NCBI GenBank assembly: GCA_964534185.1
Contig: CAZHOH010000002.1
Coordinates: forward strand, 10,558 to 74,557
Length of the DNA: 64,000 bases
Direction: 5' to 3'
From: Candidatus Woesearchaeota archaeon
Lineage (GTDB): Archaea > Nanobdellota > Nanobdellia > Pacearchaeales > GW2011-AR1
Numbering within the stretch: position 1 is the stretch's first letter; every line of letters begins with the position of its first letter. The notes beneath the pieces are model-generated. The model made no database searches and was not told the origin of the DNA. It saw nothing but the letters and a program-made list of their open reading frames with translations. This document shows, in pieces, positions 6,000-62,811 of the stretch. The translations under genes and the position numbers were made by a program.

Positions 6000-7148
6000 T
6001 CACTCGCGGCCGAAGGTCCATTTCGCCACCCGAATCGCCTCTGGATCCCCCGTCTCCTTGCCTGGCTCATCACTCAATTTTACCACCGGAATGCCGTTCA
6101 CCGAGCGCAGCTTCATCACGATGCTGAGCGGGATGCAGTCGTCGAAGTCGTTGGTCAGGTGGGTTCCGATGCCGAACGACACCTTGAATGTGTCCTTGTA
6201 AGCCTCCTGCAGGGCGATGGCCTTGTCGATGGTCAGGCCGTCGCTGAAGATGATGGTCTTCCCCCGGGGGTCGACCCGCTGTTTCTCGTAGTGCTCGATC
6301 GCGGCCTGCGCGAACTCGAAGGGGTCTCCCGAGTCATGCCTTACCCCGTCGTACGCCCTGCTCAGTTCCATGTCGAAGTCCTCCCAGAACGCCTTGGTTC
6401 CGAATGTGTCGGTCAGGGCAATTCCGAGGCTCGCCTGGTAAACGCGCATCCACTGCCGGAGCGCGTAGCGATTGGCGTGACGCAGGGACTCAAGCGCGCT
6501 GACCCCCATTACCCACTCGTGCGCCATGGTTCCGATGGGCTTGAGCCCCATCGACCTGGCGAAGGAGACGTTGCTGGTCCCTGCCAGCGTCCCGAACGAC
6601 TTCAATTCTCCCAGCACGGCCGAATGCGCCATGTGGCACCGGCGCCGACGGGTCCCGAAATCGGCGTAGCTGGCTCCCGCGAGCTCCATCCGCTGCCCCT
6701 TGGCGCGAGCCTTCCTCACCGCCTCCTTGACGAGGTCCTCGTCCCGGCCGTCCCATGCCAGGTTATGACAGGCCTCGCACACGAGGGCAAGCAGGGGAAC
6801 CTCCCAGAGGATAGCGCGGCACCATGGCCCCCGGACGACGATCTGCAGGTCGCCGTCGTGGACCACCTCCACCTCCCGGGGGTCGAAGCGGTAGTTGCGC
6901 AGGTACTCGACGTACTGCGGCTTGAAGAACGGGATCGACCGGAGGTAGTCGGCCTCGGCGTCCGTCATCTTGAACTTCCCGACCGTGCCCGTGACCATGC
7001 GCTCAACCTCGCCTGCCACCCCCGGGGGGAGGGGAGCGGTGCCGCGGTTGTGGAACCGGTATTCCACCTGCGCGTCCGGGTAGAGTTCCAGGACGGCCTG
7101 CTGCATGGTGAACTTGTACAGGTCGTTGTCCAGAATGCCAGTGCTCAT
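6000..7148 (-). CDS. pncB: nicotinate phosphoribosyltransferase
   Basis: Colinear with E. coli PncB as I recall it (DNDLYKFTMQQAV, WEVPLLA, FGTRRR, GTSN, GTMAHEW, GIALTDT, RHDSGDP, SFGIGT, KLSDEPGK). Start reset to ATG 7148 (MSTGIL), which has a GAGGGGG RBS. Confidence 0.93.
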   Translation of the reverse strand: MSTGILDNDLYKFTMQQAVLELYPDAQVEYRFHNRGTAPLPPGVAGEVERMVTGTVGKFKMTDAEADYLRSIPFFKPQYVEYLRNYRFDPREVEVVHDGDLQIVVRGPWCRAILWEVPLLALVCEACHNLAWDGRDEDLVKEAVRKARAKGQRMELAGASYADFGTRRRRCHMAHSAVLGELKSFGTLAGTSNVSFARSMGLKPIGTMAHEWVMGVSALESLRHANRYALRQWMRVYQASLGIALTDTFGTKAFWEDFDMELSRAYDGVRHDSGDPFEFAQAAIEHYEKQRVDPRGKTIIFSDGLTIDKAIALQEAYKDTFKVSFGIGTHLTNDFDDCIPLSIVMKLRSVNGIPVVKLSDEPGKETGDPEAIRVAKWTFGRE

Positions 7149-7310
7149 GCCTGCCCCCTCGTTCCTTGTTTGTTTCCTGCTACGGGCATCCCTGAGGTCG
7201 CCGCCTGATAAACCTGTTTCCTCTCCAGACCGCGCGGACCCGGTCAACGCAGGATGACGCGGATCTCGTGATTTCCTGGGCTTCACGATTTCCGCAACTG
7301 TTTACCTGTT

Positions 7311-8363
7311 CTACGAGTCTCCTCCCGCCACTTCGAAGATGCGGTCGATTACTCTCTGCTTGAGTCCTTCCCACAAAGGCCCTTCCCCAACGGGGGCCGC
7401 AATGCCGAGTGGAGCGCTGGCGCCTCCCTGTCCCATCTTGCCCCCGGAGTGCTTCTTGCCGAAGATGCGCTTTGCGAAGTCGTCGACGTCGATCGACTTG
7501 TTCTGGCTACGGATGCTGGCCTGCAGATTTTCCCCGACGACGGAGAATATGATTGAGGTCTCGACTCCTTCCAGCCTTATCATCTTGTCCGCGATGACAG
7601 GCAGGCAGTCTCGCTTGGCCGCGGCGATGATCCCGACGGTGCCCACGAACGTGGAGTCGCGCTGCTCCCAGTTCCCGTCCTTGTTTATCTCCTTCTCAAG
7701 CTCGAAGAAGTATCGCGGGTAGGGGTACCTCTCTATCTGACTGAGTTTGGCCCGGTCAATGAAGGCGCTCAGTTCCCTGGACGCCTCCCAGTCCCTGTCA
7801 GTGCAGGTGTCAGAGGTAAGGTCCTGCGTGTCGCTGCGGATGCCAAAGAAAAGGGCGGTGGCGACCCTGGGGTCCAAGCTACTGGCGCTGGCGCTGGCGC
7901 CATCAGGCGTCTCATCCCCTTCTTCCTCGCGCCGGATATGCCCGACTACCCCCTTGATCATCTCCCAGACGAGGGTGCTGGCCGAGCCAACCTGATCTAT
8001 GATCGATATGCAATCCTTCTCCGACTCCTCAGACCTGTGATGGTCAATGACGAGTATGGGGTGGCCCTTCGGCTTGGAGTTAGCCGTCGTCGCGTCGACT
8101 ATGACACATCCCTGATAGTTGTCGTTGTCATCCGAGTCCTTTATCATCCCGACGTCGAGCGTGTTCAGCATGGTCTTGTTCTGCGGATGGGATATCTCGC
8201 CCGTATACAAGATCCTCGCCTTCCTGTCGAACGAGAAGGAAAGCAGCCACTGCATCCCCATGGCCGCGCCGATGGCGTCGGGGTCCGGGGTTCCATGGGT
8301 GACGATAGCAACCGGAGAGTCATCAAGCGACCTCAATCTGTCCTTGATCGCTTTTACGTCCAT
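7311..8363 (-). CDS. DHH/DHHA1 phosphoesterase (NrnA-like oligoribonuclease / pAp phosphatase family)
   Basis: DPDAIGAAMG (motif I), LVIDHHRS (DHH) and C-terminal GGKMGQGGA (DHHA1-like Gly motif). Confidence 0.8.
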   Translation of the reverse strand: MDVKAIKDRLRSLDDSPVAIVTHGTPDPDAIGAAMGMQWLLSFSFDRKARILYTGEISHPQNKTMLNTLDVGMIKDSDDNDNYQGCVIVDATTANSKPKGHPILVIDHHRSEESEKDCISIIDQVGSASTLVWEMIKGVVGHIRREEEGDETPDGASASASSLDPRVATALFFGIRSDTQDLTSDTCTDRDWEASRELSAFIDRAKLSQIERYPYPRYFFELEKEINKDGNWEQRDSTFVGTVGIIAAAKRDCLPVIADKMIRLEGVETSIIFSVVGENLQASIRSQNKSIDVDDFAKRIFGKKHSGGKMGQGGASAPLGIAAPVGEGPLWEGLKQRVIDRIFEVAGGDS

Positions 8364-8420: not shown

Positions 8421-9995
8421 CTAGGTCTCGAACTCGACAAGGTAACGCAAAACGTTCTGGTCTTCTTGATAAACGATCCACTCGTTGTTCATCACATGGC
8501 TGTAATTCGCCTTGCCAAACACGCTGTGGCAACCCCCCGGGGGGGAGGTATACCCGCGCGGGCCTGGAGCCAGGAAGGGTTTCCCGAGGACGACGTCGCC
8601 GAGGAACATGAAGGCCTTGCGGCCTCGCACTGCGCCGCGCCCTCCGGACCAGAACGAGTTCTGTAGGCTACAGTATCCCGCGGCCTTCTTCCAGTCGTCG
8701 GCCCAGTACGTTCCAGGTCCGAACATGGCTCCTGTGATGGCTACGCCCACCAGCTTCTTCGGCATCATCAGGCTCTTGGACAAGATTCCGCTGACATTGA
8801 CGGAGCGGGTGCCGTGGAACAGCAGGGCGGTTCTGGAGTCCCTATGGGCCGAGAGCGTCCCGTTCAGGTCGGGTCGCGAGCGAGGCGAGAACATAGGCTT
8901 CTCCCGGGAACTGGGCTTCTGCGCGGCAATCTGCGCCTGCTTGGCGTCGAACCGATGGCGGCAGGTCGGCTTGTTCGCCTCCCAGATGTTATGGACCTTC
9001 ATTTGCCCAAGTCCCCTGTGGAGGTTTCGCGTCGCCCGGGGCAGGAAGTCCATGATCCACTTGCCTTCCCCCCGGGGGTCAAGCCAGCGCATCTCGAGGT
9101 CTATCCCATCCAGGGGATTGCGGGTCATGTCGTCGATGTCCTCGAGGCTGGTGGACAAGGCTTGCTCGAACGCGTCAAGGTCCTGTTGCCATGTCAGGAT
9201 GTTCTTTTGCGACAGAACCCACGTGGACTCGTCCGCGCCGACGGGCTTGACCTTCGGGATGCGCGAGTAGAGCAGCCGACTGAATTCTCTCAGCCGCTTG
9301 TCCTTGACCTGACGGTCAGGGTCGTCGCCTACTTTCGACAGCCGCTTCAGGGCCTCCGTGAGGATGTGCCTACCTTCGTTGATGGCATCCTGGGTAGGGA
9401 TGCTGTCGTCCGCCATCGAGTTGCGCGTGTAGTTGGCGGTCGCTACGTTTAGGTCGTGCATCAACTGCATGACCTTCGGATCCGGCAGGGAGTCCGCGCG
9501 CCTCGCCTTGCTCGACTTCTTGGTTTTCTTGGCGGGAGCGTCTCCCGTCTGAATCTTCTTCGCCCCGGGCAATCCGGTCGACCTGGTTGCCTGCGGGCGG
9601 ACGAGGTAGCAGTCCTTGCCCTTTTTTGCCCGCAGGGCCTGTATCCCGGAGATCTTCGTCCATTCTCCGCGCTTGTCATTCTTGCTGTGCAGTTGCTTCT
9701 CGTATGCCTTCCGCGCCTCGTCCTCGCACATGGCCATGACGAACTGGAAGTCCGGACGGGAAGCGCCGGTGCGGCCCCACTCGAAATAGGCGTACCATTC
9801 CCCCGTCTGCTTGGATCTGACGACGGCCCCGTGGTAGAACTTGTTGGTGTCCCGTCCGTCCTGGGTGAAACATCCCAGGTCAGCGACCCCAGTGTCCTCG
9901 AACTCCCCATCCTTGACCGCAGGAGGGCCAAAGCACTCGAAGTCATCGGGGCCATGGCAAGCAGGAAACTGACGTTTTGGTAGTTTGGTAGCCAT
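8421..9995 (-). CDS. poly(ADP-ribose) polymerase-like protein (WGR + helical + PARP catalytic domains)
   Basis: WGR: KFYHGAVV...WYAYFEWGRTGASRP. Catalytic H-Y-E: LLFHGTRS, GPGTYWADD, NNEWIVYQEDQ. Confidence 0.85.
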   Translation of the reverse strand: MATKLPKRQFPACHGPDDFECFGPPAVKDGEFEDTGVADLGCFTQDGRDTNKFYHGAVVRSKQTGEWYAYFEWGRTGASRPDFQFVMAMCEDEARKAYEKQLHSKNDKRGEWTKISGIQALRAKKGKDCYLVRPQATRSTGLPGAKKIQTGDAPAKKTKKSSKARRADSLPDPKVMQLMHDLNVATANYTRNSMADDSIPTQDAINEGRHILTEALKRLSKVGDDPDRQVKDKRLREFSRLLYSRIPKVKPVGADESTWVLSQKNILTWQQDLDAFEQALSTSLEDIDDMTRNPLDGIDLEMRWLDPRGEGKWIMDFLPRATRNLHRGLGQMKVHNIWEANKPTCRHRFDAKQAQIAAQKPSSREKPMFSPRSRPDLNGTLSAHRDSRTALLFHGTRSVNVSGILSKSLMMPKKLVGVAITGAMFGPGTYWADDWKKAAGYCSLQNSFWSGGRGAVRGRKAFMFLGDVVLGKPFLAPGPRGYTSPPGGCHSVFGKANYSHVMNNEWIVYQEDQNVLRYLVEFET

Positions 9996-10019
9996 TTCTT
10001 TCGTCTTCTTTTCCCAGGG

Positions 10020-10907
10020 TTACAATAGCCTGCTTCCTGTGAACTGCCAGTCCGTGAACAACTTCCCGTCCGGGAAGAAGATCAATTGCCGGATGACGTT
10101 CGTATCCGGCTCCAGCGTCAGGCAGTTCGACACACAGACGTTTTGTCCCCGGAAGTCATAGACAGCGGCGCCGTGGGGCAGTGTGTAGAGCTTGGTCCCC
10201 TCCGTCTGAACATGCTCTTGAATAGCCAGACACGCGAGATCGCTGAGGCGATTCAAGTCGATCCACTTGTTGACCAACGGACTAGTGGTTGTCGCGTCCC
10301 ACGCGGGTGTCACGGGCCTCCATGTCAGTTGCTCGACTTTGTTCTCCAAGCAGAAGTCCACGAGGCGCTCGAAGGCCTTCGGGCCATCAACGCCCCCCTT
10401 GATGCCGATCGTGGTATACCTTACGATCAGGCCCGCGTCATGGGCGCGCTTGATGGCGTCCTTCATGTCAAGGAGCTTCTTCCTCTTTGGCCAGTAGATC
10501 CTGTGGTTGAGGTCGGGATCCGATCCGACGTTGGATATCATGATGGTAGTCATGCCCGCGCTGTACCAGTCGACAAGCATGTGCCCAACCCGATATCCTC
10601 TCCAAGTGGATTCCCCGAGGAACGCGCCGTTCGTTTGTAGTTCGACGAACGGGAATCGACCCTCGAGTTCCGCCAAGTAGGTGTATATCTGATTCGGATA
10701 GAGGGTAGGCTCCCCTTTCCCCGTTATGAGGACATTGGTGATGCCGCATCTCTCGGCTATCTGCACCGCCTTGCGCAGGTTCCGTATGTTCAATTCGATC
10801 AGAACATCGCAGCCTTTGTTCGTCTCCGTCATGCGCGACACGCAAAACGGGCACTGCGCGTTGCAGGCCTTGGTCCCCGCGACAAGCGACATCGTCTGAA
10901 ATTTCAT
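10020..10907 (-). CDS. radical SAM enzyme, unknown substrate
   Basis: CNAQCPFC (CxxxCxxC) at residues ~15-22 and ITGKGEPTLYP (SAM-binding GGE-like). AAGGAG RBS. Confidence 0.8.
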   Translation of the reverse strand: MKFQTMSLVAGTKACNAQCPFCVSRMTETNKGCDVLIELNIRNLRKAVQIAERCGITNVLITGKGEPTLYPNQIYTYLAELEGRFPFVELQTNGAFLGESTWRGYRVGHMLVDWYSAGMTTIMISNVGSDPDLNHRIYWPKRKKLLDMKDAIKRAHDAGLIVRYTTIGIKGGVDGPKAFERLVDFCLENKVEQLTWRPVTPAWDATTTSPLVNKWIDLNRLSDLACLAIQEHVQTEGTKLYTLPHGAAVYDFRGQNVCVSNCLTLEPDTNVIRQLIFFPDGKLFTDWQFTGSRLL

Positions 10908-11000
10908 CTGACATTCTCCTTATGTTCAATCGTCGGATGGCGCGGACCCTGTACCCCCCCTACTCCGATCGACGGATACGTCTTCTTGTCCCCTCACGTT

Positions 11001-11195
11001 TTACGGGTCTGCCGCGTGGAGTTCGACGGGGGAAAGCGATTCGAGAGACACTGCCCCAGCCTTCCCGCGGAGCCACGCCACCTCGCCCCCCGACAACAGG
11101 TGGCCTATGTATCGAACCTCGTAGACATTATCGTCGTGCGGACCGCCGATGATCGGGTGGTAACGTACCTTCTGACCTACACGGCATTCTGACAT
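11001..11195 (-). CDS. small hypothetical protein (64 aa)
   Basis: ORF 11001..11207. ATG at 11195 (MSECRVGQKVRYHP). Overlaps the 3' end of the upstream gene by ~68 nt. Confidence 0.4.
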   Translation of the reverse strand: MSECRVGQKVRYHPIIGGPHDDNVYEVRYIGHLLSGGEVAWLRGKAGAVSLESLSPVELHAADP

Positions 11196-11883
11196 TTTCA
11201 CCCCCATGGTCTTTGGCCAAGTCGGAAACCTCTTTGGTGCGAGCGTCTTCTTTTCCTAGTTCCTGCTCGCAATAACGCGCGACCTTGACGATCCGTCTGG
11301 CAACGAAGTTCTTAAGCCAACTCCTCGTTGCAGGCAGCGCGTCTAGGTGGCCCATGACTTTGTTCGCATATTCCTGGCCTCCGATCAATACGATTGCGAC
11401 GGCGGCGTTAGCAACAATGGCACTGAAATACGGGATGTCAAGCAGCAGGTCGTTGGCATGAGATGCAAACACCTGAAAAAGAGTTTCCTCCAGGTTCGCA
11501 TGAATATTGTCGGGGATAACGGTTGCCTTTCTCGCGACCATCTTGGTCGCCTCGCATACCAGAGCCTGGTTTTTCATGCTCATGAAACGAGCGATCACGT
11601 CACAGTCCAATGAACTACGGGAAGCCATCGCAATGAAGAGCCTGACGCCTGCGGAGGTAAAAACATTCATGTATTCGTTGTCGCGATGCTTTTCCACGAA
11701 ACTCACGACAGCATCCCTGAGCGGCTTCTCGCCGCGAGTCCACAAAGGAGCAAATGAATACATGTTGGCTAGGAACACCCCCTCGGCAGATAGAACCGCC
11801 CTGCCCTCCAAAGAGGGGTCAGTCATCTTGCCGTCAACAAACTGCTCGATTTCCCGCATCATCCGCTCGATTTTATCCGACAT
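11128..11883 (-). CDS. hypothetical helical protein (251 aa)
   Basis: ORF track entry in the co-directional block. No motif recognised. Confidence 0.6.
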   Translation of the reverse strand: MSDKIERMMREIEQFVDGKMTDPSLEGRAVLSAEGVFLANMYSFAPLWTRGEKPLRDAVVSFVEKHRDNEYMNVFTSAGVRLFIAMASRSSLDCDVIARFMSMKNQALVCEATKMVARKATVIPDNIHANLEETLFQVFASHANDLLLDIPYFSAIVANAAVAIVLIGGQEYANKVMGHLDALPATRSWLKNFVARRIVKVARYCEQELGKEDARTKEVSDLAKDHGGENVRMPCRSEGTLPPDHRRSARR

Positions 11884-11921
11884 CGTTATCTAGCCCCCGC
11901 CGATGAGCCAGAGGTACTCCG

Positions 11922-11953
11922 CTGGCCCCGGAGAGTCGTCGAACCGGGGCCAG
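11922..11953 (-). promoter_or_regulatory. perfect 10-bp-stem hairpin CTGGCCCCGG-N12-CCGGGGCCAG just downstream of the ParB-like gene
   Basis: Read directly: ctggccccgg agagtcgtcgaa ccggggccag. No U-tract, so it is not a canonical intrinsic terminator. Confidence 0.4.
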
Positions 11954-11963
11954 CGGGACGTTG

Positions 11964-12851
11964 CTACTTGGCGGAAGCCAAATCTGCGGCCGGCTTGCGG
12001 ACACGAAACATGCTTTCGTCGAACACCCGCGGGAAAGCCTCGCTCGTGGCGTAGCGGATCTGCTTCATGGGCTGCTCATTGGCCCAGGCGTTCATGGCCT
12101 TGACAAACAGCGCCAGCACGTAGTCTCGGAAGCCGCTGCCGTTGTGCCCCAGGCCCCTGTTGAGCCGAAGGATGGAACGGCGCAGTGCCAGCGACGGGCT
12201 GTCGGTCTCGAGGTTCACCCCCGTGGCCACCTCCTCGATGAAGGCGTCAGCTAGTTCCTCATCGTCCAGCGCGCGCATCAGGACGTACTTGCAGAACGCA
12301 GCCTGCGCGAGGCACCCCCCGATCTCGCGAAGGTATTTGCCGGCGGGCAGGCGGACTGCGTCCCGGGCCTTCGGATGGCGCTCGAGCACGCTCATGATGT
12401 CGACGTTGCCCGCGCGGTTGCGGGCGATGTTCTGCGACGATCGGTTCTCGTAGCGCCAGATGTACTTCAGCAGCGCGGCCAGCGCGGTGGAGTTCGCCTC
12501 GCCCCGTATCTGCATGATGTGGGCCGCGGTCCTGCCCATGCCGCAGTCGATGGTGGCCTGCGCGTTGTCGTCCGTCACGCCGCGAACGACGATGGTCTCG
12601 ATGCTCTGGCCTGACTCGATGATCGCTTGCAGACGGTGCTGGCCGTCGATCAGATGCCCCTCCTCGTCAAAGGTGATAGTCTGGCCGTTGAAAGACCACT
12701 GGTTCATACGCATCTGATCCGCGTAGAACTCGATGCGCCTCCGGGAAAGCTTGCGGTTCGCCTCCTGCGTTTCCAGCCACCGCTTGGCCTTGCGAGGTCC
12801 GACCTTCTCCCGGTTCGACTTGATGTACGTCCTTTTCTTGCTTTTGCCCAT
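11964..12851 (-). CDS. ParB/Srx-fold N-terminal domain protein (DGQHR motif)
   Basis: EEGHLIDGQHRLQAI is the ParB-like nuclease/Srx core motif. Start reset to ATG 12851 (MGKSKKRTY) with an AGGAGA RBS. Confidence 0.75.
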   Translation of the reverse strand: MGKSKKRTYIKSNREKVGPRKAKRWLETQEANRKLSRRRIEFYADQMRMNQWSFNGQTITFDEEGHLIDGQHRLQAIIESGQSIETIVVRGVTDDNAQATIDCGMGRTAAHIMQIRGEANSTALAALLKYIWRYENRSSQNIARNRAGNVDIMSVLERHPKARDAVRLPAGKYLREIGGCLAQAAFCKYVLMRALDDEELADAFIEEVATGVNLETDSPSLALRRSILRLNRGLGHNGSGFRDYVLALFVKAMNAWANEQPMKQIRYATSEAFPRVFDESMFRVRKPAADLASAK

Positions 12852-12914
12852 CTTCAGTCTCCTGTTTTCAAAAAGAAAAATACTATGCCCCAAGCGGGTT
12901 CCTCGAATGCGTCT

Positions 12915-12943
12915 ATAATACACAAAATGCGGCGCACGCACAA
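12915..12943 (-). promoter_or_regulatory. candidate sigma-70-type promoter of the ParB-like gene
   Basis: Minus strand: TTGTGC (12943-12938), 17 nt spacer, TATTAT (12920-12915), ~65 nt upstream of the ATG. Confidence 0.3.
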
Positions 12944-12954
12944 GCGTCGGCAAA

Positions 12955-12988
12955 GAGGCCCCGGAGCAACCGGGGCCTCTTTGCCTTA
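12955..12988. terminator. hairpin AAGAGGCCCCGG-AGCAA-CCGGGGCCTCTT, terminator-like on both strands
   Basis: Perfect inverted repeat read directly. It is followed on the plus strand by tgccttattttt, and it lies between two minus-strand genes. Confidence 0.4.
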
Positions 12989-13026
12989 TTTTTCAAACTC
13001 CTCAACGATAGCACCACCGCTATCGC

Positions 13027-13230
13027 TCAATGCTCGTTCTTCCGTTTCTCAAAGTAGCCCATCTCATCCGCCAGCGCCCCAATATAGCGCCCGTCCGCGT
13101 CAAAGCAGAAATGCGTCTGCGCCACGGAAATGCCATGGTCTCCACGGTACACGCCATATTCGTTTCGCCATTCCTCAAGCCCTACTCCCATGCAGGTGAA
13201 GAAGGCAACGAATTCCTCGTAGTCCGTCAT
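13027..13230 (-). CDS. small hypothetical protein (67 aa)
   Basis: ORF 13027..13308. ATG at 13230 (MTDYEEF) avoids overlap with the vWA gene. Confidence 0.45.
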   Translation of the reverse strand: MTDYEEFVAFFTCMGVGLEEWRNEYGVYRGDHGISVAQTHFCFDADGRYIGALADEMGYFEKRKNEH

Positions 13231-13304
13231 CGCTATGCTCCCGATGCAACTCACAGTGGCCACCGTAGTGGAAAGCGGGTCACGCTGCCTCCACAGGGAG
13301 TGCC

Positions 13305-14096
13305 TCAACTACCGAACCCCCCCATGGCCGTCTGGCTGAAACTGGCGCCGCCCTGGGACGCGCGTACCGCGCTCTGGCTGAAGACCTGGAAGGCCTTCCT
13401 GACTTCGGTCTCGCTGTTGCCAGGGGTCAGGATCCACTCGTCCTGGACGCCCATCTGCTGGAAGATGCGCTTGAAGTCGGCCCCCGCGTCGTCCTTGATC
13501 CCCATGGCGGCAATGATGTGGCACTCCTGCCGCAACATGTCCTCGACCAAGGGCTTGACGTCCAAGGCGCTGGATGAGGAGTGCTGGTCCGCTCCGTCGG
13601 TAACGATCAGGGTGATCGTCCGGGCCGGCACTCCAGAGTCCGCGAACTCGCGGTGCTTGGCCATGACCGTGCCCAGCAGGGCGATGGTCTGGTCGTACAG
13701 CGGCGTCCCCTTACGCGGGTCGTAGTTCTGCGGCGTCATGACCTCGGCGTCCTCCAGCTTCCGGTAGGGGAACAGCACGTCCCCGTTGAGATAGCGGGTG
13801 TGCGCCAGAACGGCGTCCGTCTGCTTCGATTTCTTCAGCGCATCCAGAACCAGGTTGTGCCCATCGATGACCGCCTGCTTGTTGCCTGCGAACTGGATCG
13901 ACCCGCTGTCGTCCGGCATCATCGTCACCAGAACGACCTCGCTGGCCTCCACGTCGTCGGCGGAGATGCCCAGACCGGCCTGAATCTGTGCCCCCAGGTC
14001 AATGGAGTTCAGGGCCTGCATCGACTGCAGGCTCAGATCCCCCTCGTCATGGGCTTGCTTGAATACCTCGCCCAAGTCTGCCACGTTGCTGCTCAT
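13305..14096 (-). CDS. von Willebrand factor A (TerY-like) protein
   Basis: MIDAS residues: MPDDSGSIQF (DxSxS) and LIVTDGADQHS. Start reset to ATG 14096 (MSSNVADLG) with a GAGGAG RBS. Confidence 0.85.
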   Translation of the reverse strand: MSSNVADLGEVFKQAHDEGDLSLQSMQALNSIDLGAQIQAGLGISADDVEASEVVLVTMMPDDSGSIQFAGNKQAVIDGHNLVLDALKKSKQTDAVLAHTRYLNGDVLFPYRKLEDAEVMTPQNYDPRKGTPLYDQTIALLGTVMAKHREFADSGVPARTITLIVTDGADQHSSSSALDVKPLVEDMLRQECHIIAAMGIKDDAGADFKRIFQQMGVQDEWILTPGNSETEVRKAFQVFSQSAVRASQGGASFSQTAMGGFGS

Positions 14097-14224
14097 GATC
14101 GTCTCCTCGTTCGATGAACCCCTCCCCCAACAAACTCCGCTGGAACGGCTCGACACAAAAACAGTAAGCGTTGGCACGTTCGATTGGAGTCCGGGGGAGG
14201 GGCTCGTATGTCGGTCAGCCTTAG

Positions 14225-15292
14225 CTACAGGCTGATGCCATCCCATTCCTCGATGGGCTTGGTGGATCTGACGACATGCATGCCAGCGTCCTTGAATTTC
14301 TGGATCGCCGCTACGGCGTCGTCGGTAAAGTCCGCCACGAACCCTCCCTGGCCGTCAGGGATCGCGACCGAGCTCATGCAGTCCTCCATGATGTAGCACT
14401 TGCGCGCCAGGGACTCGTCCTGCGCGCGGATCTCGCTCAGCAGGTCGTCGATCGTGAACTTGACGCAGTGGCTCGCGGCCTGCCCCGCGATGATGACGGC
14501 GTCGCTGTCCAGCAGCGTGTTCAGAAACCGGGTGTTCTTCTGGCCCACCGGCTTGTGGTCCTGGGTTGCCAGAACCTCCGGGCGCAGGACGGAATAGTTC
14601 TCCGTCAGCAGGGCGCCCCCCTTGACCTCCAGATCCCCCTTGGAGGACCGGGCGAAGGAATGGAAAGCCCGCGCCTCGGCGACTGTTCCCGCGAGCGCGT
14701 GTCCCTCAGAGCCGAGCAGGCAGTGGAAGGGCCAGAGGTAGAGCTGGTACTTGCCAGCCTTCTCCAGCTCCTGGCAGTAGTGCTTGACGTAGCTGACCAG
14801 CCACGTGTAGTTGCCGTTGCACAGCCACTTCGCCATGGCGGGGTTGGGATTCAGCTTGCCTTCCGAGATGTCCTGGGTGGAGACGGTCGTGTGCGCGGCC
14901 GGGGCCTTGCCGTCCTCGCCGACCCAGAAGCTCGGGAAGAATACCTGGAACGGGAAGTGAGTGTCCATCGTGCAGGTCACGTCGGTGATGGCGGGGAGGT
15001 TCTTGTAGATGAACTCCGCTGTCCGCGCGGAGTCCTCGATCGCGCCGCGTCCGCCGCGGCCACCTACGTAGAGCGTCCCCTCGGGGAAGCAGAAGTCCTT
15101 CTGGGCGTCGATCAGCAGCAGGTGGACGCGGAATTTGTCGGCGCCGGACGGAGCCACGCCATGCTTCTTAACCCACTCCTGCGCCTTCTCGAACAACATG
15201 GCCTCGTTCGGGCGGTAGCCCCACTTCTCGGCGGACTTCGGGTCGTAGAAGTCAGGCAGGGGCAGTTGCTTGACTGGCGTCGCGGTGCTCAT
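14225..15292 (-). CDS. isochorismatase-family cysteine hydrolase, nicotinamidase-like
   Basis: LLLIDAQKDFCFPEG (catalytic Asp region), MDTH (possible metal site) and IIAGQAASHCVKFT (nucleophile Cys). Start reset to ATG 15292 with an AAGGAGAA RBS. Confidence 0.75.
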   Translation of the reverse strand: MSTATPVKQLPLPDFYDPKSAEKWGYRPNEAMLFEKAQEWVKKHGVAPSGADKFRVHLLLIDAQKDFCFPEGTLYVGGRGGRGAIEDSARTAEFIYKNLPAITDVTCTMDTHFPFQVFFPSFWVGEDGKAPAAHTTVSTQDISEGKLNPNPAMAKWLCNGNYTWLVSYVKHYCQELEKAGKYQLYLWPFHCLLGSEGHALAGTVAEARAFHSFARSSKGDLEVKGGALLTENYSVLRPEVLATQDHKPVGQKNTRFLNTLLDSDAVIIAGQAASHCVKFTIDDLLSEIRAQDESLARKCYIMEDCMSSVAIPDGQGGFVADFTDDAVAAIQKFKDAGMHVVRSTKPIEEWDGISL

Positions 15293-15303
15293 CTTCTTCT
15301 CCT

Positions 15304-17148
15304 TCACTTCAAACTCAGGACGCCAACCTCCTGGCGCCCGGTGACGTACACGCCATTCTTCCCAGCGAAGAGATGGCAACCTTCATTCACGAACGGCTCC
15401 GTGTCGGGGAACTCCTTTTCCACCTCCAGTAAGCCGCCGTTGTTCCTGATCCGCCTCAAGCCCTCGTCAGAGGCGCTTAGCAGCATCTTGTCAAACGCCC
15501 ACTTTCCCCTGATTCCGGATAGCCAGGGATGGTCGGCCTGGTCGGTCTGCTCCGTCGCCAGAACCTCGCCGTGGCGACTGACCACGTGGCATTCGTTGAC
15601 CTTCCTCTTGCCCTGCTGCGTGCTCACGAAGAACCAGCAGCAATGATCCCCGAAAAAGCAGGTCGAGTCTATCAGTTGGCCGCGAACCTTGACGTTGACG
15701 GAGTCGTTGATCTTTCCGTTGACGTCGAATACGAAGGCCACGCTCAACTGGCCGGCGCGATAGAAGCCCAGGCCGAACTCCGGGCCCACCCAGAAGAGGG
15801 TCTGGTTCCTCAGCACGTCGCCTATCCTCTTGTATCCCAGTATATCATCACGATAGAGTACACCGTCCTGCAACCAGAACTTATCGCGCCCGTTGGCGTC
15901 GAATATGGGCAGGTTGCCGTAGAAGTCGACCGGCAACTGCTCCAACTTGCCATCCTTGTCCACGACCAGCGCCGGCTTCCCGGACATGCCAATGAGAGTC
16001 TGATTCCCGCAGATGCGAAAGCGCATCTGGTGATGCGCGGACCCCTTGAGGACCTTTACTCCCCCTTCTCTCCAAAAATGTCCGTCTTCCCAATAGAGCC
16101 ACCTCATCTGGCCATCCTGCATGGCGGCGAACAGGATGGTTCCCTTCGTGGAGAATATCTTCTTGTATTCCACGTTGCCCTTGACGACCTCCTTAACGAG
16201 CGGAACGACCTTCTGGCACTCCGGGCAGGACTTTCTCGCGTGCTCGAAGCCGCAGCCCGGGCAGACGCGCCACTGCGTGTTCAGCAACTGCAGCGGGAAC
16301 GGACCCCGCGTGTCCTTCTCGAACACCTGGCGTAAGTAGTCCGCCAGGTCGTCCGGCAGGGACTTGAGGGGCCGCGCGGGCTTCGGGTACTTGACCTCCG
16401 AGTCAAATACCGTGATCCGGTGCAGGGGCCGCGCCGGGTGGGGCACCTTGCGCTTCTTGTCCTTGGGACGAAAAACCCCCCCGTATGGGTCAACGAACAT
16501 CAGGGTCTGCATGACCATGACCGCGAAGGCGTACCAGTCGGAGTCCTCGTTGTGGGGCCTGACCAGGACGGGCCTGTTCTGGCGCGCGTCGCACAGCAGG
16601 GGATCCACGAATCGCTCCGTGTAGACACGGCAGGGAAACGTCCTGAACTGCCAACTGTCAGCGTCGATGACGTAGGGCGTATCGCCTTTGACGAGGACGT
16701 TGAGGTCGTTGAAGTCACCAACCACCGCGTCCTTCTCGTGGATCGCCTCGACCACCTGGGCCAGTTTCTTCAGAATCCTGTTGACGACATTGTTGTTGAC
16801 GCCATGCCGGAAGGACTTCTCTCCATAGCGGAGCAGAGGCTCTGCCCCCTCGACCATGTCCATCACGTAGCCAACGATCTTTCCTTTCCTGTCGGTCGCA
16901 ACGTCCAGCGGGACGATGACGTTCGACGGCACCCCCCGGGGGAACTGGGTCAACTTCTGCTGGTGCTCCTCTATGCGAATCCTCGCGGCCTGGCGCTGGT
17001 CGACGGTCAGGTGGTCGGGATGGTTCTCTCCCTTGAAGACTTTGAGCGCGTGACCACCGGGGATCCGGTAGACGTCAGCTTCGCCGCCTTTGCCTATGCT
17101 ATCGGTAGGAGCAACGCTTATGCGCTTGCTTCTGACGTAGACTTGCAT
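15304..17148 (-). CDS. Ser/Thr protein kinase with zinc ribbon and C-terminal repeat domain
   Basis: GKGGEADVY...ALKVFK (Gly loop plus Lys), VVGDFNDLNVLV (catalytic loop), VIDADSW (DFG-like) and CPGCGFEHARKSCPECQK. About 270 aa of beta-rich C-terminus. Confidence 0.85.
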   Translation of the reverse strand: MQVYVRSKRISVAPTDSIGKGGEADVYRIPGGHALKVFKGENHPDHLTVDQRQAARIRIEEHQQKLTQFPRGVPSNVIVPLDVATDRKGKIVGYVMDMVEGAEPLLRYGEKSFRHGVNNNVVNRILKKLAQVVEAIHEKDAVVGDFNDLNVLVKGDTPYVIDADSWQFRTFPCRVYTERFVDPLLCDARQNRPVLVRPHNEDSDWYAFAVMVMQTLMFVDPYGGVFRPKDKKRKVPHPARPLHRITVFDSEVKYPKPARPLKSLPDDLADYLRQVFEKDTRGPFPLQLLNTQWRVCPGCGFEHARKSCPECQKVVPLVKEVVKGNVEYKKIFSTKGTILFAAMQDGQMRWLYWEDGHFWREGGVKVLKGSAHHQMRFRICGNQTLIGMSGKPALVVDKDGKLEQLPVDFYGNLPIFDANGRDKFWLQDGVLYRDDILGYKRIGDVLRNQTLFWVGPEFGLGFYRAGQLSVAFVFDVNGKINDSVNVKVRGQLIDSTCFFGDHCCWFFVSTQQGKRKVNECHVVSRHGEVLATEQTDQADHPWLSGIRGKWAFDKMLLSASDEGLRRIRNNGGLLEVEKEFPDTEPFVNEGCHLFAGKNGVYVTGRQEVGVLSLK

Positions 17149-17942
17149 CTTCTCACCACCACTAGCGTCGTGTCGTCCGGCAGCAGGCCCTTCTGCTCTT
17201 CCAGAAGACGGTTCTCGTAATCCACCTTGCGCGAGTTCCTGTTGATCAGGCGCAGCCGTCGAGAGACGGCGAAGGAGTTCCTGAAGTAGCGGTCATCAGC
17301 CCAGAACTGGGAGAGAGCGCCAACCTCCTCGCTCTTCCCCGGGAGTCTCCGGCGCCTGAGTTCCGGGATGTTATCAACCCCGTCGGTCCCGACAAGAATG
17401 GACTCGATGTCCGCCGTCTTCCACTCCCAACGATCGAAGGCGCTCCTGTCCCGCTGGTCCGGGTTCGTAACCGCGTATCCGATATAGGACGGCGCGTTGT
17501 TCTGGTCGATGGAATGAACGACGAGTCCCTCCGACAAGGTGCAGCGGTTAATCAGGCCGTCCCCGCACGACAGCACGGTTGTCTTCTCGTCGTCCATGAC
17601 CAGGACGATGGAGGTAAAGAGGAAGAAATCTGAGACGGCACTCGAGAGGCTGTCACTGACCCATTCCGAGACCACGGACAACTTCGAGGCCACCTCCATG
17701 CGCAGCCTCTCCTGGTCGACGCGGCCCAGCCTCCTTTTCTGCGCCCATGCCGACATCACGAGCATGCGGGCCCCGAGCAGCGCGCCTGCCTCGCTATACC
17801 TCCCGCTGCCGCAGCCGTCGCACACGGCCGCGACAATTAGGTTGTCGTCGGTCTTCCAGAAGTAGGAGTCTTGGTTGTTCCGGCCGGCCATCTCGTGATC
17901 GCGGCCCCTGACGCTCCCACCGGCAATTTGGAATCCGTTCAC
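17118..17942 (-). CDS. PP2C-family protein phosphatase
   Basis: RGRDHEMAGRNNQDSY, AAVCDGCGSG, VGTDGV. GTG start. 31-nt overlap with the kinase start. Confidence 0.85.
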   Translation of the reverse strand: MNGFQIAGGSVRGRDHEMAGRNNQDSYFWKTDDNLIVAAVCDGCGSGRYSEAGALLGARMLVMSAWAQKRRLGRVDQERLRMEVASKLSVVSEWVSDSLSSAVSDFFLFTSIVLVMDDEKTTVLSCGDGLINRCTLSEGLVVHSIDQNNAPSYIGYAVTNPDQRDRSAFDRWEWKTADIESILVGTDGVDNIPELRRRRLPGKSEEVGALSQFWADDRYFRNSFAVSRRLRLINRNSRKVDYENRLLEEQKGLLPDDTTLVVVRRCKSTSEASA

Positions 17943-18038
17943 GGGTCAACTGCTTTCCTAAATGCGGCAACTCGTAGAAGTCACCAAGGATTGGGTTCTT
18001 GCCCGCAAGCGCACATGTACGTACGCTTTGACAAGAAC

Positions 18039-20722: not shown

Positions 20723-20822
20723 GGTCCGCGCGCCTTGGAAAGTTACTTGGGTCCGCGCCGGAGCACGGCGGCGTGACACTAAGTAAAAAAGACAGACTTT
20801 TGTCTTGACCAAGGAGCGCGCT

Positions 20823-21467
20823 ATGAGTAACCTGACTTTCCGCTACCCCGACGACCCCGCACGGATGCCGGCGGACCAACTCCCCAGACTGGAGAGAATG
20901 AGTCCGGGTCTATGGTGGGGGTTTACAAAGGGTGACGGATGGCGACGGCCTGCCTACTGCGAAGGGAGTGGAGTCTGGACGTTCCACTCGAAGCGCGGTG
21001 ACGGAATCGAGGCCCGCAAGTCCCCTCCCAAGGGGCTAGTCGAACTTTTCTCCGCGATGGATTGGCCTGAAGGTATCGCCATCGACATGGAGTGGATGGG
21101 GCCCCGGCTACGGGAACATTTCCCAACCGAAGACGACCACGAGTTCTGGATCTTCGACATGACCTACTGCGCGTGGAAATGGCAGGGAAAGACACCCTTT
21201 GCAAAAAGGTGGGTGCACCTGTCAGAAATCTTCCACGACGCGGCCCGCGGCAAACCCGAGAACTTCCCCCGGGTGAGGCTGCTGGCGCCCTACAAGGAGA
21301 ACCTGGCGCAGGCGTTCGAGCAGGAACAAGCAAACCCCCTGTCCGAGGGCCTGGTTCTGCGGCACGTCCGAGGGCACCTCGTTGGCGACCTCAACGGACC
21401 CAGGAAGAATCCGGGCGCCATGAAGAAAGTAAAGTACCGGAACGCGAAAGAGAAGACTGCATTCTAA
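20823..21467 (+). CDS. minimal ATP-dependent polynucleotide ligase (nucleotidyltransferase domain only)
   Basis: FTKGDGWR (motif I KxDGxR), WIFDM (III), EGLVLRH (IV), MKKVKY (V). Start reset to ATG 20823 with an AAGGAG RBS. At 214 aa there is no room for an OB domain. Confidence 0.65.
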   Translation: MSNLTFRYPDDPARMPADQLPRLERMSPGLWWGFTKGDGWRRPAYCEGSGVWTFHSKRGDGIEARKSPPKGLVELFSAMDWPEGIAIDMEWMGPRLREHFPTEDDHEFWIFDMTYCAWKWQGKTPFAKRWVHLSEIFHDAARGKPENFPRVRLLAPYKENLAQAFEQEQANPLSEGLVLRHVRGHLVGDLNGPRKNPGAMKKVKYRNAKEKTAF

Positions 21468-23355: not shown

Positions 23356-25599
23356 TCAGTTGTCAATTTCTTGATCCACGTCCACCCACTGGTTGGCCAA
23401 GGGGTAGATGACCTTCATGATCGCCTTGTCAATTCTATGGCTTTTCCCGTTGATCATGTGCCATATTACCCCCCTCAAAACGGCCGGGGCATCTTTCTGG
23501 GCGATTCCTAGCTTCTTCTTGGCCTGCGAGTCGCCCTTGTCGTAGTGCTTGGCCAGAAAGTCGTTGGCCATGGCCAAGATCCTAGACTTTGCCTCGTCGT
23601 ACTGGGACTCGATCTTGTCCTTGTATTGCTCGGCCAGTTCGCGCATTTCCTCCGGAATCTCGGCCATTCGAGACTCCGAGACCTTGCCGTCCGACATCGC
23701 CTCCCACATCAAGATGGGCGAGAGGCCCATCATGACCTTCGACATGTCCTTGTACCAGTCGGTCTTGACCTTTACCCTGCGGCCGTCCTGAAACCTTATG
23801 ACGTACCCCTCGAAGTGCTTGGCTTTACTCGCCACCTCCAGGCAGTCTTCCAGGCTCAGCGAGTCGTAGCGCCGAACGACATGCAAATCGGCCAGTCTGG
23901 CCCACTCCTCGACCAGGTCGCGCGGGTACTCCTCCCCGGTATGGCGGTTGAAGGCCGCCAGCACGTAGAGCCCCGTCTCGTCGTAGTCCAGGATGATCTT
24001 CTGGTCATGATTGATGATCTCGAAGACCAGCGTCGCCTCGTCCGGCAAGGCCGACAGGTTCTTGCGCGAGATGTACTGTGTGGCCCACTGCGACCCAGGG
24101 GAATGGAACGACCCCCGGCTGGCCACCTTGTACTCGCCCTGGTGGCGGTAGAGGACGCCAAGCCATCCATCCAGCTTCTCGTAGACCTCGTAGGGCTTGT
24201 CCCACGGGAGGTTCTCGCGAAGGGTCTCCTCGCGCTCCCCGAGGTTGAAGAACTTTGGAAACGCCCAGGCCACGCACTCCCCCGTCTCAAGATCATAGAT
24301 GTGGCCACGGCAGTTCAGCGTCACGTCGTCCCAGGCGCGATCGAATACACACTGGTCGGTATAGGTGTAGATCGCCAGCCTGTCGTCGTCCGTCCTGTCC
24401 CCGCGCAGCAGGCCCGCCTCCATGTACGCCTCCCTGCGGGCGACGTGCTCGTGGGGGTTCTCCTTACACCCGGGGAAGGAGTTCGTCGCGTAGGCGCGCT
24501 TGGCCTGGACGTAGTGGGGCCGCTGGGTAGCGGAGTCCCAGAACTTCAGGTACCCGCCGAACACGCAGCCGCCGTCAAGGTGGGCGATGTTGTTATAGCA
24601 TGGCCCCGCGGGGTCGGGGTTGTGCCCGAAGAAGACCCTCGGGGCGTCGGACGGCCATAGACGGTTCCACAAGATCCCCGTCTGCGCGTCGAAGTAGGAG
24701 TCCCCTCCGTAGTAGCGCATGTAGAGGCAGTCGGACCTGAACTGCTCGTCCGGGTCTCGCGTCGGGTCGAATCCCGCGTGGACAACGTAGCCATGGGGAA
24801 CCCGGAGGATCAGTGGGCAGCCCTTGAGGAAGGAGACGAACTCATCCTTTACCTGCTCGCCGTCCTCGTCCTGCTGGAACGAGTCGATCGTTGCCTGCAG
24901 GCCATGGGCTAGCTTGACCGGGTTGCCCTTGGCCCAGCGCAGGAACTTGTCCTCGTGGTTTCCAAGGACCATGTGGAGGTTGAGGGACATGAGGTGTCGC
25001 ACCACCCCCAAGGGGTCTGGCCCTCGGTCGATGACGTCCCCTACCGAGACGAGCACGTCCTGCTCGGGACGAAACCCAAGCTCGACGAGGCCCTGCTGAA
25101 ACTCGTCATAGCACCCGTGTATGTCGCCGACGATGATGTAGCGGCGGCCCCCGATCTCATCGCGGACGTCCTTAACGAGGACGCTGCACGGGGCTTCGCC
25201 CTCTACTGTCAACTCGTCGGCCTCCCTCCTCGATGGCGCCTGGAACTGCGAGAAGTACATGCCGAGGGCCTTTCCCGCGTTCTCCGGGCGCAGCGTGGGA
25301 TGTTTGCCACGCGAGGCGATCCTCTCGCGGCACACGTCGCAGTTCTCGTTCAGCCATACGATCTTAGTGTGATAACCGGCCTTCTTGGCGGGAGACAGGT
25401 ACCGGCGCCGCTGCTGGCGATTGTGGTTGATGCGGTCGACGACGACGTTGTCCCCGCGCGCCACTGCCTCCTCGAACAGGCGCAGGTGATCCTTGCCCTG
25501 ATCGTCCTGGGAAACCCGCACGTAGCCCTTGAGGTTCTTGTCGCAGTAAGTCGTCTTGCCCGACCCCTGCGGGCCAACCATCAGCACGAGATCGCTCAT
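23356..25599 (-). CDS. trifunctional polynucleotide kinase / metallophosphoesterase / RNA-ligase-type protein (Pnkp-like)
   Basis: N-terminus: GPQGSGKTT (P-loop kinase). Middle: VGDIHGC, GDVIDRGPD, GNHE (calcineurin-like phosphatase). C-terminus: YEKLDGWLGV (KxDG adenylyltransferase motif I). AAGGAGG RBS. Confidence 0.85.
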   Translation of the reverse strand: MSDLVLMVGPQGSGKTTYCDKNLKGYVRVSQDDQGKDHLRLFEEAVARGDNVVVDRINHNRQQRRRYLSPAKKAGYHTKIVWLNENCDVCRERIASRGKHPTLRPENAGKALGMYFSQFQAPSRREADELTVEGEAPCSVLVKDVRDEIGGRRYIIVGDIHGCYDEFQQGLVELGFRPEQDVLVSVGDVIDRGPDPLGVVRHLMSLNLHMVLGNHEDKFLRWAKGNPVKLAHGLQATIDSFQQDEDGEQVKDEFVSFLKGCPLILRVPHGYVVHAGFDPTRDPDEQFRSDCLYMRYYGGDSYFDAQTGILWNRLWPSDAPRVFFGHNPDPAGPCYNNIAHLDGGCVFGGYLKFWDSATQRPHYVQAKRAYATNSFPGCKENPHEHVARREAYMEAGLLRGDRTDDDRLAIYTYTDQCVFDRAWDDVTLNCRGHIYDLETGECVAWAFPKFFNLGEREETLRENLPWDKPYEVYEKLDGWLGVLYRHQGEYKVASRGSFHSPGSQWATQYISRKNLSALPDEATLVFEIINHDQKIILDYDETGLYVLAAFNRHTGEEYPRDLVEEWARLADLHVVRRYDSLSLEDCLEVASKAKHFEGYVIRFQDGRRVKVKTDWYKDMSKVMMGLSPILMWEAMSDGKVSESRMAEIPEEMRELAEQYKDKIESQYDEAKSRILAMANDFLAKHYDKGDSQAKKKLGIAQKDAPAVLRGVIWHMINGKSHRIDKAIMKVIYPLANQWVDVDQEIDN

Positions 25600-52091: not shown

Positions 52092-52499
52092 TCAGTTCCC
52101 TTCAGTTTTCCACTGGAGGCCCCACTGTATGTTGCGCGCATCGGCGTAGATGCCGAGCCTTTCCAGTTCCCCGAGCAGCGTGCCGTCCAGCATCAAGACC
52201 TCCCTCGGGTTCATCGGATCTGCCATCGTGATGCCGGCATGGGGCTCGTGCGCATGCTTGACCTCGAACCTTACCGCCTCGACGCCGACCGTGACGAAAG
52301 GACTCGTCATTGCCGTGGGCTTCGAGGGCCAGATGAACCTGACCTTCGGGTTAAGAAGCCCGAACTTCTCCTGGATGCACTCCTTTATTTCCGCCCCCGT
52401 GGCGTCCCGACCTAGTTTGTCGGACTTCTTGTTCGCGGCCGCGAGGAAGTACTCTATGTTTACCTTGATCATCCGCATCAGAACCACGTCCGCCTTCAT
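52092..52499 (-). CDS. hypothetical protein (135 aa)
   Basis: ORF whose start overlaps the upstream stop (ATGA). Confidence 0.55.
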   Translation of the reverse strand: MKADVVLMRMIKVNIEYFLAAANKKSDKLGRDATGAEIKECIQEKFGLLNPKVRFIWPSKPTAMTSPFVTVGVEAVRFEVKHAHEPHAGITMADPMNPREVLMLDGTLLGELERLGIYADARNIQWGLQWKTEGN

Positions 52500-53563: not shown

Positions 53564-53621
53564 CACGGATCCTCGCTAGATCGCCTAAAGGAAGGATATC
53601 CGCACGCGGCGTCCGTTGCAA

Positions 53622-59097: not shown

Positions 59098-59106
59098 TTT
59101 CTTCTC

Positions 59107-59796: not shown

Positions 59797-59799
59797 CGA

Positions 59800-61401: not shown

Positions 61402-61402
61402 A

Positions 61403-62503: not shown

Positions 62504-62808
62504 TAGGTCTTGTGTTTACGCTGTATATTTCTTCCATCATCAAGTTGCTCCCCCCGGGAACTGGCCTCAAGCAGTTGTACAAGATTTTCGTCTATCTCAT
62601 CCATTAGTTGGTTGCGCTGAACATTGAGATCGCATGCCTTCTTCAGACATGCCCAAAGCCTTTGTGCCCCATCTTCCGTATTCCAGTACTTGTCCTTGAA
62701 TTCCTTGAAAGACATCCGCCGGATCTCGTAGAGGAGTTCCTGGTTATCCCACATCTTGAGGTCAACGGTAATCAACTTATCTATCAATCCACCAAACGTA
62801 TCTGCCAT
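62500..62808 (-). CDS. small helical protein (102 aa), possibly DUF4254-like
   Basis: ORF coupled to the aminotransferase (ATGA-type overlap). Family call is tentative. Confidence 0.5.
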   Translation of the reverse strand: MADTFGGLIDKLITVDLKMWDNQELLYEIRRMSFKEFKDKYWNTEDGAQRLWACLKKACDLNVQRNQLMDEIDENLVQLLEASSRGEQLDDGRNIQRKHKTY

Positions 62809-62811
62809 ACC

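Follow-up and report, generated by a model that had tools for sequence, protein, structure and literature searches.

A four-gene cassette joining a nicotinamidase-like hydrolase to a vWA protein, a PP2C phosphatase and a Ser/Thr kinase recurs in bacteria and phages

A vWA protein (TerY), a PP2C phosphatase and a Ser/Thr kinase reportedly make up the TerY-P triad described by Anantharaman, Iyer and Aravind in 2012, and Gao et al. are said to have reported in 2020 that this triad acts in defence. The bacterial PncA and PncB genes of the Preiss-Handler route, in which a nicotinamidase (PncA) and a nicotinate phosphoribosyltransferase (PncB) salvage nicotinamide adenine dinucleotide (NAD), are likewise said to lie under the Nudix-related regulator NrtR, as Rodionov et al. 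reportedly found in 2008. Depletion of NAD+ is a major bacterial anti-phage strategy. Yeast Pnc1 and the Drosophila nicotinamidase control nicotinamide-sensitive NAD+ consumers, and we know of no regulation of either enzyme by phosphorylation or by a vWA protein. Since 2024, three pathways by which phages reconstitute NAD+ have been described, NARP1 (Adps and Namat), NARP2 (Nampt and Nmnat) and NARP3 (PnuC and NadR), and none is known to include a nicotinamidase or a signalling switch. Here we describe a cassette in which genes of the three TerY-P types are joined to a fourth, for a nicotinamidase-like hydrolase. It occupies positions 13305-17942 of a 64,000-nucleotide stretch of contig CAZHOH010000002.1 (hereafter the window), which is deposited under Candidatus Woesearchaeota archaeon (assembly GCA_964534185.1) and is likely to belong to a large phage.

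A recurrent four-gene module

The cassette comprises the following genes, listed in the order of their transcription:

17942-17118, minus strand: PP2C-type Ser/Thr phosphatase, first gene of the cassette, 274 aa from a GTG start
17148-15304, minus strand: Ser/Thr kinase, 614 aa
15292-14225, minus strand: nicotinamidase-like hydrolase, 355 aa from the ATG at 15292
14096-13305, minus strand: vWA protein, 263 aa from the ATG at 14096

The four minus-strand open reading frames (ORFs) lie exactly as a first-pass annotation of this DNA had placed them, with the 31-nt overlap it gave for the PP2C and kinase genes and the 11-nt gap it gave between the kinase and hydrolase genes, while the hydrolase and vWA genes are 128 nt apart. 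Two of the mechanical ORFs are longer, that of the hydrolase running from a TTG at 15379 (15379-14225) and that of the vWA protein covering 14246-13305. The shorter starts are preferred because in a metagenomic relative with 91-94% identity (L008) the corresponding gene calls are 356 and 263 aa. The 355-aa start of the hydrolase also agrees with the length of its database homologues, and a GAGGAG ribosome-binding site precedes the ATG of the vWA gene.

A pattern scan for the hydrolase across one genome per GTDB species returned at least 583 relatives, and the same scan of IMG/VR returned at least 177. The idea that the hydrolase is a lone insertion unique to this element is ruled out by these numbers. 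For 80 bacterial and 79 viral loci, retrieved with flanks of 10 kb, the ORFs were searched with hidden Markov models built iteratively from the window proteins. The bacterial counts given here for the trio of PP2C, kinase and vWA genes are lower bounds, because the conservative ORF caller merges frames in GC-rich DNA.

Downstream of the nicotinamidase gene a vWA gene was found in 152 of the 169 hydrolase-anchored loci. It lies on the same strand in 71 of the 80 bacterial loci, within 300 nt in 70 of them, and the bacterial loci that lack it are mostly cut by a contig end or are pncB-pncA loci. The corresponding viral figures are 73 of 78 for loci of the gut- or huge-phage type and five of five for those of the window type. 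Of the loci with full flanks, 56 of 68 viral ones and no fewer than 32 of 51 bacterial ones yielded all three genes, PP2C, kinase and vWA. Such an arrangement far exceeds what chance would give, since the four families are found together in most of the 169 independent loci. The four genes are confirmed as a real, conserved module with copies in hundreds of bacteria and phages. The functional linkage that the first-pass annotation had proposed is supported, and its own refuting condition, occurrence in this genome alone, fails decisively.

The genes occur in two orders. PP2C-kinase-nicotinamidase-vWA, as seen in the window, is the main order in bacteria and also occurs on some large viral contigs; nicotinamidase-vWA-PP2C-kinase is the main order on gut- and huge-phage contigs, including LR756500, LR745208 and MT837596. 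The two orders are circular permutations, and in both the same two pairs stay together, the nicotinamidase gene with the vWA gene behind it and the PP2C gene with the kinase gene behind it. When compared with Myxococcota-type copies, the nicotinamidase and vWA proteins have near-equal median identities of 61% and 62%, respectively; the kinase stands at 43-48% and the PP2C at approximately 35%. Within the module, conservation is highest in the nicotinamidase-vWA pair, and this, together with the constancy with which the vWA gene follows, tells against the earlier description of the hydrolase as something inserted into a TerY-P triad.

A search anchored on the kinase gave a consistent picture, with an adjacent nicotinamidase and vWA gene in 13 of 14 viral loci and an apparently degraded locus (L181) as the only exception. 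Kinase matches also occur on contigs 183 kb and 1.7 Mb long, again within the same four genes. On the larger of these, a JGI contig (L185), the cassette is intact at 9137-13791 and the surrounding gene calls consist of many very short fragments, which points to reassignment of a stop codon or to a highly unusual genome. IMG/VR contigs with relatives of the cassette range from 41 to 545 kb, and the bacterial distribution of the module is much wider than the viral one.

The module is widespread and, as far as we can tell, undescribed. For three of its four proteins the annotation is nearly always 'hypothetical', or no name is given. As the first-pass annotation had supposed, no description of such a variant was found in the literature searched; the 2012 TerY-P paper of Anantharaman and colleagues may mention the association. 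A survey of viral NAD+ and ADP-ribose systems (Iyer et al. 2022) leaves nicotinamidase unmentioned, and a phage G paper remarks on a PncA-like gene of unknown role.

The four cassette proteins

Taken together, its motifs, profile matches and predicted fold place the hydrolase in the PncA family as a long-form, divergent nicotinamidase. As a single sequence it matches Pfam Isochorismatase (0.0057) and NCBIfam PncA (4e-5) weakly, and a PF00857 match is precomputed for some of its close homologues. The catalytic triad D62/K224/C276 is invariant in an alignment of 16 sequences extending down to 35% identity, as are D110, H112 and H190 of the metal site, the WPxHC motif is conserved (W187-P188-x-H190-C191), and the triad residues align with the corresponding motifs of yeast Pnc1 and Mycobacterium tuberculosis PncA. 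The six best PDB matches of the hydrolase profile are nicotinamidases or close relatives, and its matches include yeast Pnc1 (2e-9), M. tuberculosis PncA and enzymes from Leishmania, Acinetobacter and Pyrococcus. An AlphaFold2 (AF2) model (pLDDT, the predicted local distance difference test score, of 83.7) returned nicotinamidases at all of the first 12 Foldseek ranks, with target template-modelling (TM) scores of 0.47-0.76, mostly around 0.7. Yeast Pnc1 and the Drosophila nicotinamidase are among the best of these structural matches, at only 16-18% identity; enzymes of related fold that act on other amides, biuret hydrolase and maleamate amidase, also appear among the structural matches. These results bear out the first-pass reading of the protein as nicotinamidase-like with its Cys nucleophile and metal site intact.

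The hydrolase is some 150 residues longer than canonical PncA enzymes of approximately 200 aa, the excess being divided between an N-terminal extension, an insert at about residues 120-185 and a C-terminal extension. More than 4600 relatives were found in databases, many of them named nicotinamidase at source; the best are 60-65% identical and around 350 aa in length, and carry that name in Myxococcota and Planctomycetota records.

The vWA partner alone has no Pfam or NCBIfam match, and three of 23 members of its family reach Pfam VWA. The family profile, however, matches a solved vWA domain (4cn8), and in 23 sequences reaching down to 19% identity the residues D62, S66, T131 and D167 of the metal ion-dependent adhesion site (MIDAS) are invariant, with S64 at least 90% conserved. 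The same sequences share a C-terminal Ser motif, FSQSAVRASQ, with S240 and S247 invariant and S242 conserved to at least 90%. The 2962 database relatives of this protein, which extend to Cyanobacteria and Planctomycetota, are mostly without a name, and the named ones are called hypothetical protein.

The phosphatase matches Pfam PP2C_2 at 3.7e-17 and its metal-binding residues (D25, D42-G43, D128, D187-G188 and D256-D257) are invariant in 22 orthologues down to 17% identity. The kinase as a single sequence gives weak matches only, to Pkinase (0.0034), LanL-type kinase domains and phrog_37888. Its family profile matches RSK, StkP and RIPK1 at 1e-6 to 2e-8, and the residues G21-G22-E23, K36, H137, D145, N150 and D162 are invariant in the family alignment. 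The AF2 model of the kinase (pLDDT 89.7) shows a kinase fold over residues 1-290, followed by a ribbon (296-311) and an all-beta domain (320-614). The ribbon corresponds to a CxxC..CxxC zinc ribbon (C296, C299, C308 and C311) that is at least 90% conserved in close homologues. In a Foldseek search of the PDB the top match of the whole model is LRRK2, which combines a kinase with a WD40 propeller, followed by ordinary Ser/Thr kinases, and we regard the modelled C-terminal domain (320-614) as beta-propeller-like. With its catalytic residues intact, the protein looks like an active Ser/Thr kinase, and, judged from sequence, all three partners of the hydrolase look active, their active or ligand sites being preserved. 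Profiles, folds, invariant residues and spacing thus sustain all four domain assignments of the first-pass annotation and its description of a tight operon.

NAD-related neighbours and the nature of the element

Neighbours of the cassette in the window include several NAD-related genes, together with features that bear on the limits of its transcription unit:

6000-7286, minus strand: PncB (nicotinate phosphoribosyltransferase), full-length; NCBIfam NF003704 at 7.5e-136, above cut-off, with Pfam NAPRTase and NAPRTase_N
7311-8363, minus strand: DHH protein, family II pyrophosphatase-like, adjoining PncB; Pfam DHH at 1.6e-10
8421-9995, minus strand: protein with WGR and PARP catalytic domains, 524 aa; Pfam PARP at 8.1e-21 and WGR at 1.8e-6
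10020-10907, minus strand: radical S-adenosylmethionine (SAM) protein; weak MoaA, viperin and QueE-like matches
12949-12985: GC-rich hairpin with a perfect 16-bp stem, from a terminator scan, 3' of the cassette
13308-13027, minus strand: small ORF, 93 aa, overlapping the vWA stop codon
41131-43119, minus strand: NAD-dependent DNA ligase, a second NAD+ consumer; phrog_3869 at 2.8e-129

The DHH protein also matches the NCBIfam model for Mn-dependent inorganic pyrophosphatase (2.5e-14, below cut-off). The PARP/WGR gene is located between the cassette and PncB. PARP consumes NAD+ and releases nicotinamide, and is rare on a bacterial or phage element; no homologue of the PARP/WGR protein was found in any fetched locus. 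At the 3' side of the cassette, the small ORF may be a fifth member of the transcription unit, with no Pfam match and no homologue among the fetched loci. The hairpin sits between this ORF and a ParB-like gene (phrog_5931, 8.8e-58) and is probably the terminator that ends the unit.

The bacterial copies have a similarly NAD-related setting. On one bacterial contig the cassette stands behind a NUDIX and WHD_NrtR gene, amid genes for riboflavin, glycosyltransferase and Zip-transporter functions. Homologues of this NrtR, with around 70% identity to it, were found in 36 of the 80 bacterial loci, usually directly upstream and on the same strand, and the resulting order nrtR-PP2C-kinase-pncA-vWA is seen in Sorangium, Polyangium, Archangium, Corallococcus, Myxococcus and others (for example L030, 6478-11035). 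Loci without the trio read pncB-nrtR-pncA.

On phage-like contigs a nicotinate phosphoribosyltransferase (NAPRTase) gene often adjoins the cassette, for instance in L177, L179, L180, L183 and L184, and L169 and several more loci show the same adjacency. Behind the cassette of L169 come two genes with LSDAT domains, then a NAPRTase gene, a radical SAM gene and a NAD synthase gene. The two LSDAT_prok (SLOG-like) genes fill 11981-13552, between the vWA gene and the NAPRTase gene. The radical SAM gene of this locus (14953-15882), adjoining those for NAPRTase and NAD synthase, is an orthologue of the radical SAM gene in the window with 41% identity, and such a gene may be a recurrent companion of phage NAD-salvage genes. 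The L169 contig itself comes from an 'Aenigmarchaeota' metagenome-assembled genome and has archaeal exosome genes aboard; it could represent a prophage, a chimera or a contig binned in error. Considered together, the neighbours of the cassette, which are NrtR, PncB and NadE across loci and PncB, the pyrophosphatase, PARP and the ligase in the window, point to regulated NAD salvage and not to defence.

The element in the window is likely a large phage. This assignment rests on its many PHROG matches, alongside which it encodes a sigma-70 factor, a Pnkp-like RNA-repair enzyme, a C5 methylase and a peptide deformylase, and on one neighbouring protein with homologues in Rhodococcus, Mycobacterium and Xanthomonas jumbo phages. 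No tRNA genes were found in the window. A distant-mode blastn search with positions 13000-18000 gave no DNA match in deposited phages; at the protein level, relatives of the cassette there were limited to three huge phages, all uncultured, and a single scaffold of a faecal phage, and no cultured phage of the deposited-phage collection has the cassette.

Two further blocks of the window deserve mention. Genes for RNA repair lie at 20805-21467 (plus strand), 23356-25599 (minus strand) and 52496-53566 (minus strand), and comprise a 747-aa fusion of Pnkp-like kinase, phosphoesterase and T4-type RNA ligase, a nucleotidyltransferase of the RlaP family and an ORF weakly resembling RNA ligases. A set of this kind suggests a counter to defences that cleave tRNA or RNA. 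Towards the end of the window (56000-64000), GC content falls from about 0.60 to 0.47 across a sugar-modification block containing a UDP-GlcNAc 2-epimerase, a DegT aminotransferase, an FkbM methyltransferase and a GNAT protein, and this block may have been acquired separately.

Proposed mechanism, alternatives and comparison with known systems

On balance, we incline to the view that the cassette is a phospho-regulated nicotinamidase/vWA module serving Preiss-Handler recycling of NAD by the phage. In this model the output of the module would be the nicotinamidase reaction, which converts nicotinamide to nicotinate and ammonia and is the entry step of Preiss-Handler NAD+ salvage. It is plausible that the nicotinamidase and its vWA partner form a physical complex through the MIDAS site, and that the kinase and PP2C phosphatase provide a phosphorylation switch that toggles this complex, with the beta-propeller-like domain of the kinase acting as the sensor of a signal. 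The most obvious candidate for the target of phosphorylation would be the invariant Ser motif at the C terminus of the vWA protein, although the enzyme itself could also serve. The nicotinate produced would feed the PncB of the element, whose pyrophosphate-releasing reaction could be pulled forward by the neighbouring pyrophosphatase, and NadD and NadE of the host would complete the synthesis of NAD+.

Nicotinamide might be supplied either by the element's own PARP-like enzyme or by NAD+-cleaving defences of the host. Recycling it would keep NAD+ available for the NAD-dependent ligase and PARP of the element, and its clearance could also relieve product inhibition of PARP, by analogy with yeast Pnc1 and Sir2. 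In this scheme the module might also bring a counter-defence benefit.

Several observations weigh against this reading. The hydrolase scores below the curated cut-offs, with 17.2 against 27 bits for Isochorismatase and 23.4 against 174 bits for NCBIfam PncA, and must therefore represent a divergent nicotinamidase branch. A search for a regulatory interface found no segment that separates trio-linked from trio-less long-form nicotinamidases. Neither NadD nor NadE was found among the approximately 60 window ORFs scanned against Pfam, NCBIfam and PHROGs, and the element therefore cannot finish the pathway alone. Finally, no structural gene (capsid, portal or terminase) was identified in the window, and because of this, and of the lack of a DNA match in deposited phages, its phage status is likely rather than shown.

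Of the alternatives, the one that survives best, and which we nevertheless consider improbable, is a TerY-P-type antiviral or superinfection-exclusion function, in which the kinase would sense infection, the switch would turn on the nicotinamidase and the enzyme would destroy free nicotinamide, so starving the NARP1 and NARP2 pathways of competitors. The trio of vWA protein, PP2C and Ser/Thr kinase has the architecture of TerY-P, the module is mobile between bacteria and phages, the kinase bears a weak resemblance to the PD-T4-6 defence kinase (5.2e-5), and both NARP1 and NARP2, as described, consume nicotinamide. However, no TerY-P model of PADLOC matches the cassette proteins at E<=10: PP2C, vWA protein and hydrolase are all unmatched at this threshold in PADLOC-DB v2, a library whose TerY-P model content was not independently confirmed, and the kinase matches only PD-T4-6, MkoA and mad6, all weakly. 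The antiviral TerY-P membership put forward in the first-pass annotation finds no backing here. The nearest kin of the cassette are chromosomal, in Myxococcota, and stand immediately behind NrtR in a setting of housekeeping NAD salvage, not in a defence island. Unlike patchy defence islands, the bacterial copies keep this stable place among housekeeping genes in many Myxococcota genera. In addition, phage copies often adjoin PncB or NadE, which use nicotinate to make NAD+, and recycling is therefore suggested rather than destruction.

We give little credence to a second possibility, that PP2C, kinase and vWA protein form a general signalling unit with other targets and that the nicotinamidase is a co-transcribed metabolic passenger. 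Long-form nicotinamidases do exist without the trio, in the pncB-nrtR-pncA loci, and carry no segment that distinguishes them; in three Myxococcota loci (L024, L025 and L047), moreover, several kb part the PP2C-kinase pair from the pncA-vWA pair. Conversely, the association of the four genes persists at 20-35% identity and through permutation of the gene order, the vWA gene follows the nicotinamidase gene almost invariably, and, among the kinase-anchored loci, a kinase of this subfamily occurs without the nicotinamidase only in the degraded L181. Lastly, the extra segments of the hydrolase, its scores beneath the PncA cut-offs and the activity of related folds on biuret and maleamate could indicate another pyridine amide as substrate (nicotinamide mononucleotide, nicotinamide riboside or a modified nucleotide), with the module controlling a signalling metabolite instead of bulk salvage, but this is equally hard to sustain given the complete nicotinamidase-specific metal triad, the invariant WPxHC motif, the 12 best structural matches, which are all nicotinamidases, and the PncB and NrtR neighbourhoods, which fit nicotinate as the product.

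Should the proposed logic of a phospho-regulated nicotinamidase module be correct, Preiss-Handler salvage would gain a regulated entry point, the TerY-P-type architecture of vWA protein, PP2C and kinase would acquire a concrete enzymatic output open to assay, and there would be a candidate, itself testable, for the means by which phages control nicotinamide and NAD+ pools. A bolder extension, which we put forward tentatively and regard as doubtful, is that the cassette and PncB constitute a fourth, mechanistically distinct and deamidating route by which phages rebuild NAD+, switched on by kinase, phosphatase and vWA protein upon NAD+ cleavage, and that the bacterial module would place a nicotinamidase governed by NrtR under phosphorylation and vWA control. 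If true, this would be the first known control of a nicotinamidase, and through it of nicotinamide levels and NAD+ homeostasis, by Ser/Thr phosphorylation and a vWA protein, and would apply in Myxococcota, Cyanobacteria and other bacteria.

When compared with TerY-P, the cassette has the same three domain types in one tight operon, a zinc ribbon in the kinase, intact catalytic and ligand sites, and a predicted phosphorylation switch that would act on or through the vWA protein. The differences are nonetheless extensive. The trio is here joined to a nicotinamidase as a constant fourth member, which lies between kinase and vWA genes in the window-type order and precedes the vWA gene in the other, and the vWA gene is paired with this enzyme and not with the kinase and phosphatase. 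The kinase carries a C-terminal domain that is beta-propeller-like in its model, the vWA protein alone goes unrecognised by Pfam and NCBIfam models, and bacterial copies stand behind NrtR in a NAD-salvage setting. The cassette is TerY-P-like by architecture, and we do not file it as a member of that system because it has no PADLOC match, its trio is never self-contained and its setting is one of NrtR-linked salvage.

Its resemblance to the NrtR-PncA-PncB salvage genes lies in the same nicotinamidase triad and metal site and in the adjacency of NrtR and PncB, and it departs from them in the long form of the enzyme (approximately 350 aa), in the vWA partner encoded next to it and in the three signalling genes built into the operon. 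With yeast Pnc1 and the Drosophila nicotinamidase, to which the cassette enzyme has little sequence identity, it would share the clearance of nicotinamide and thereby the relief of sirtuin- or PARP-type product inhibition, a PARP/WGR gene being close by in the window.

The likeness to the phage NARP pathways is that NAD-salvage enzymes are carried by a phage or mobile element, where they are placed to reuse nicotinamide released by NAD+ cleavage. In contrast to the NARPs, which are not known to include a kinase/phosphatase/vWA switch and none of whose enzymes was found in the window, the cassette route would proceed by deamidation through PncA and PncB and would need NadD and NadE to finish. 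Among the ORFs scanned, the window provides only PncA and PncB of the enzyme set that rebuilds NAD+, and the related locus L169 carries the NAD synthase in addition.

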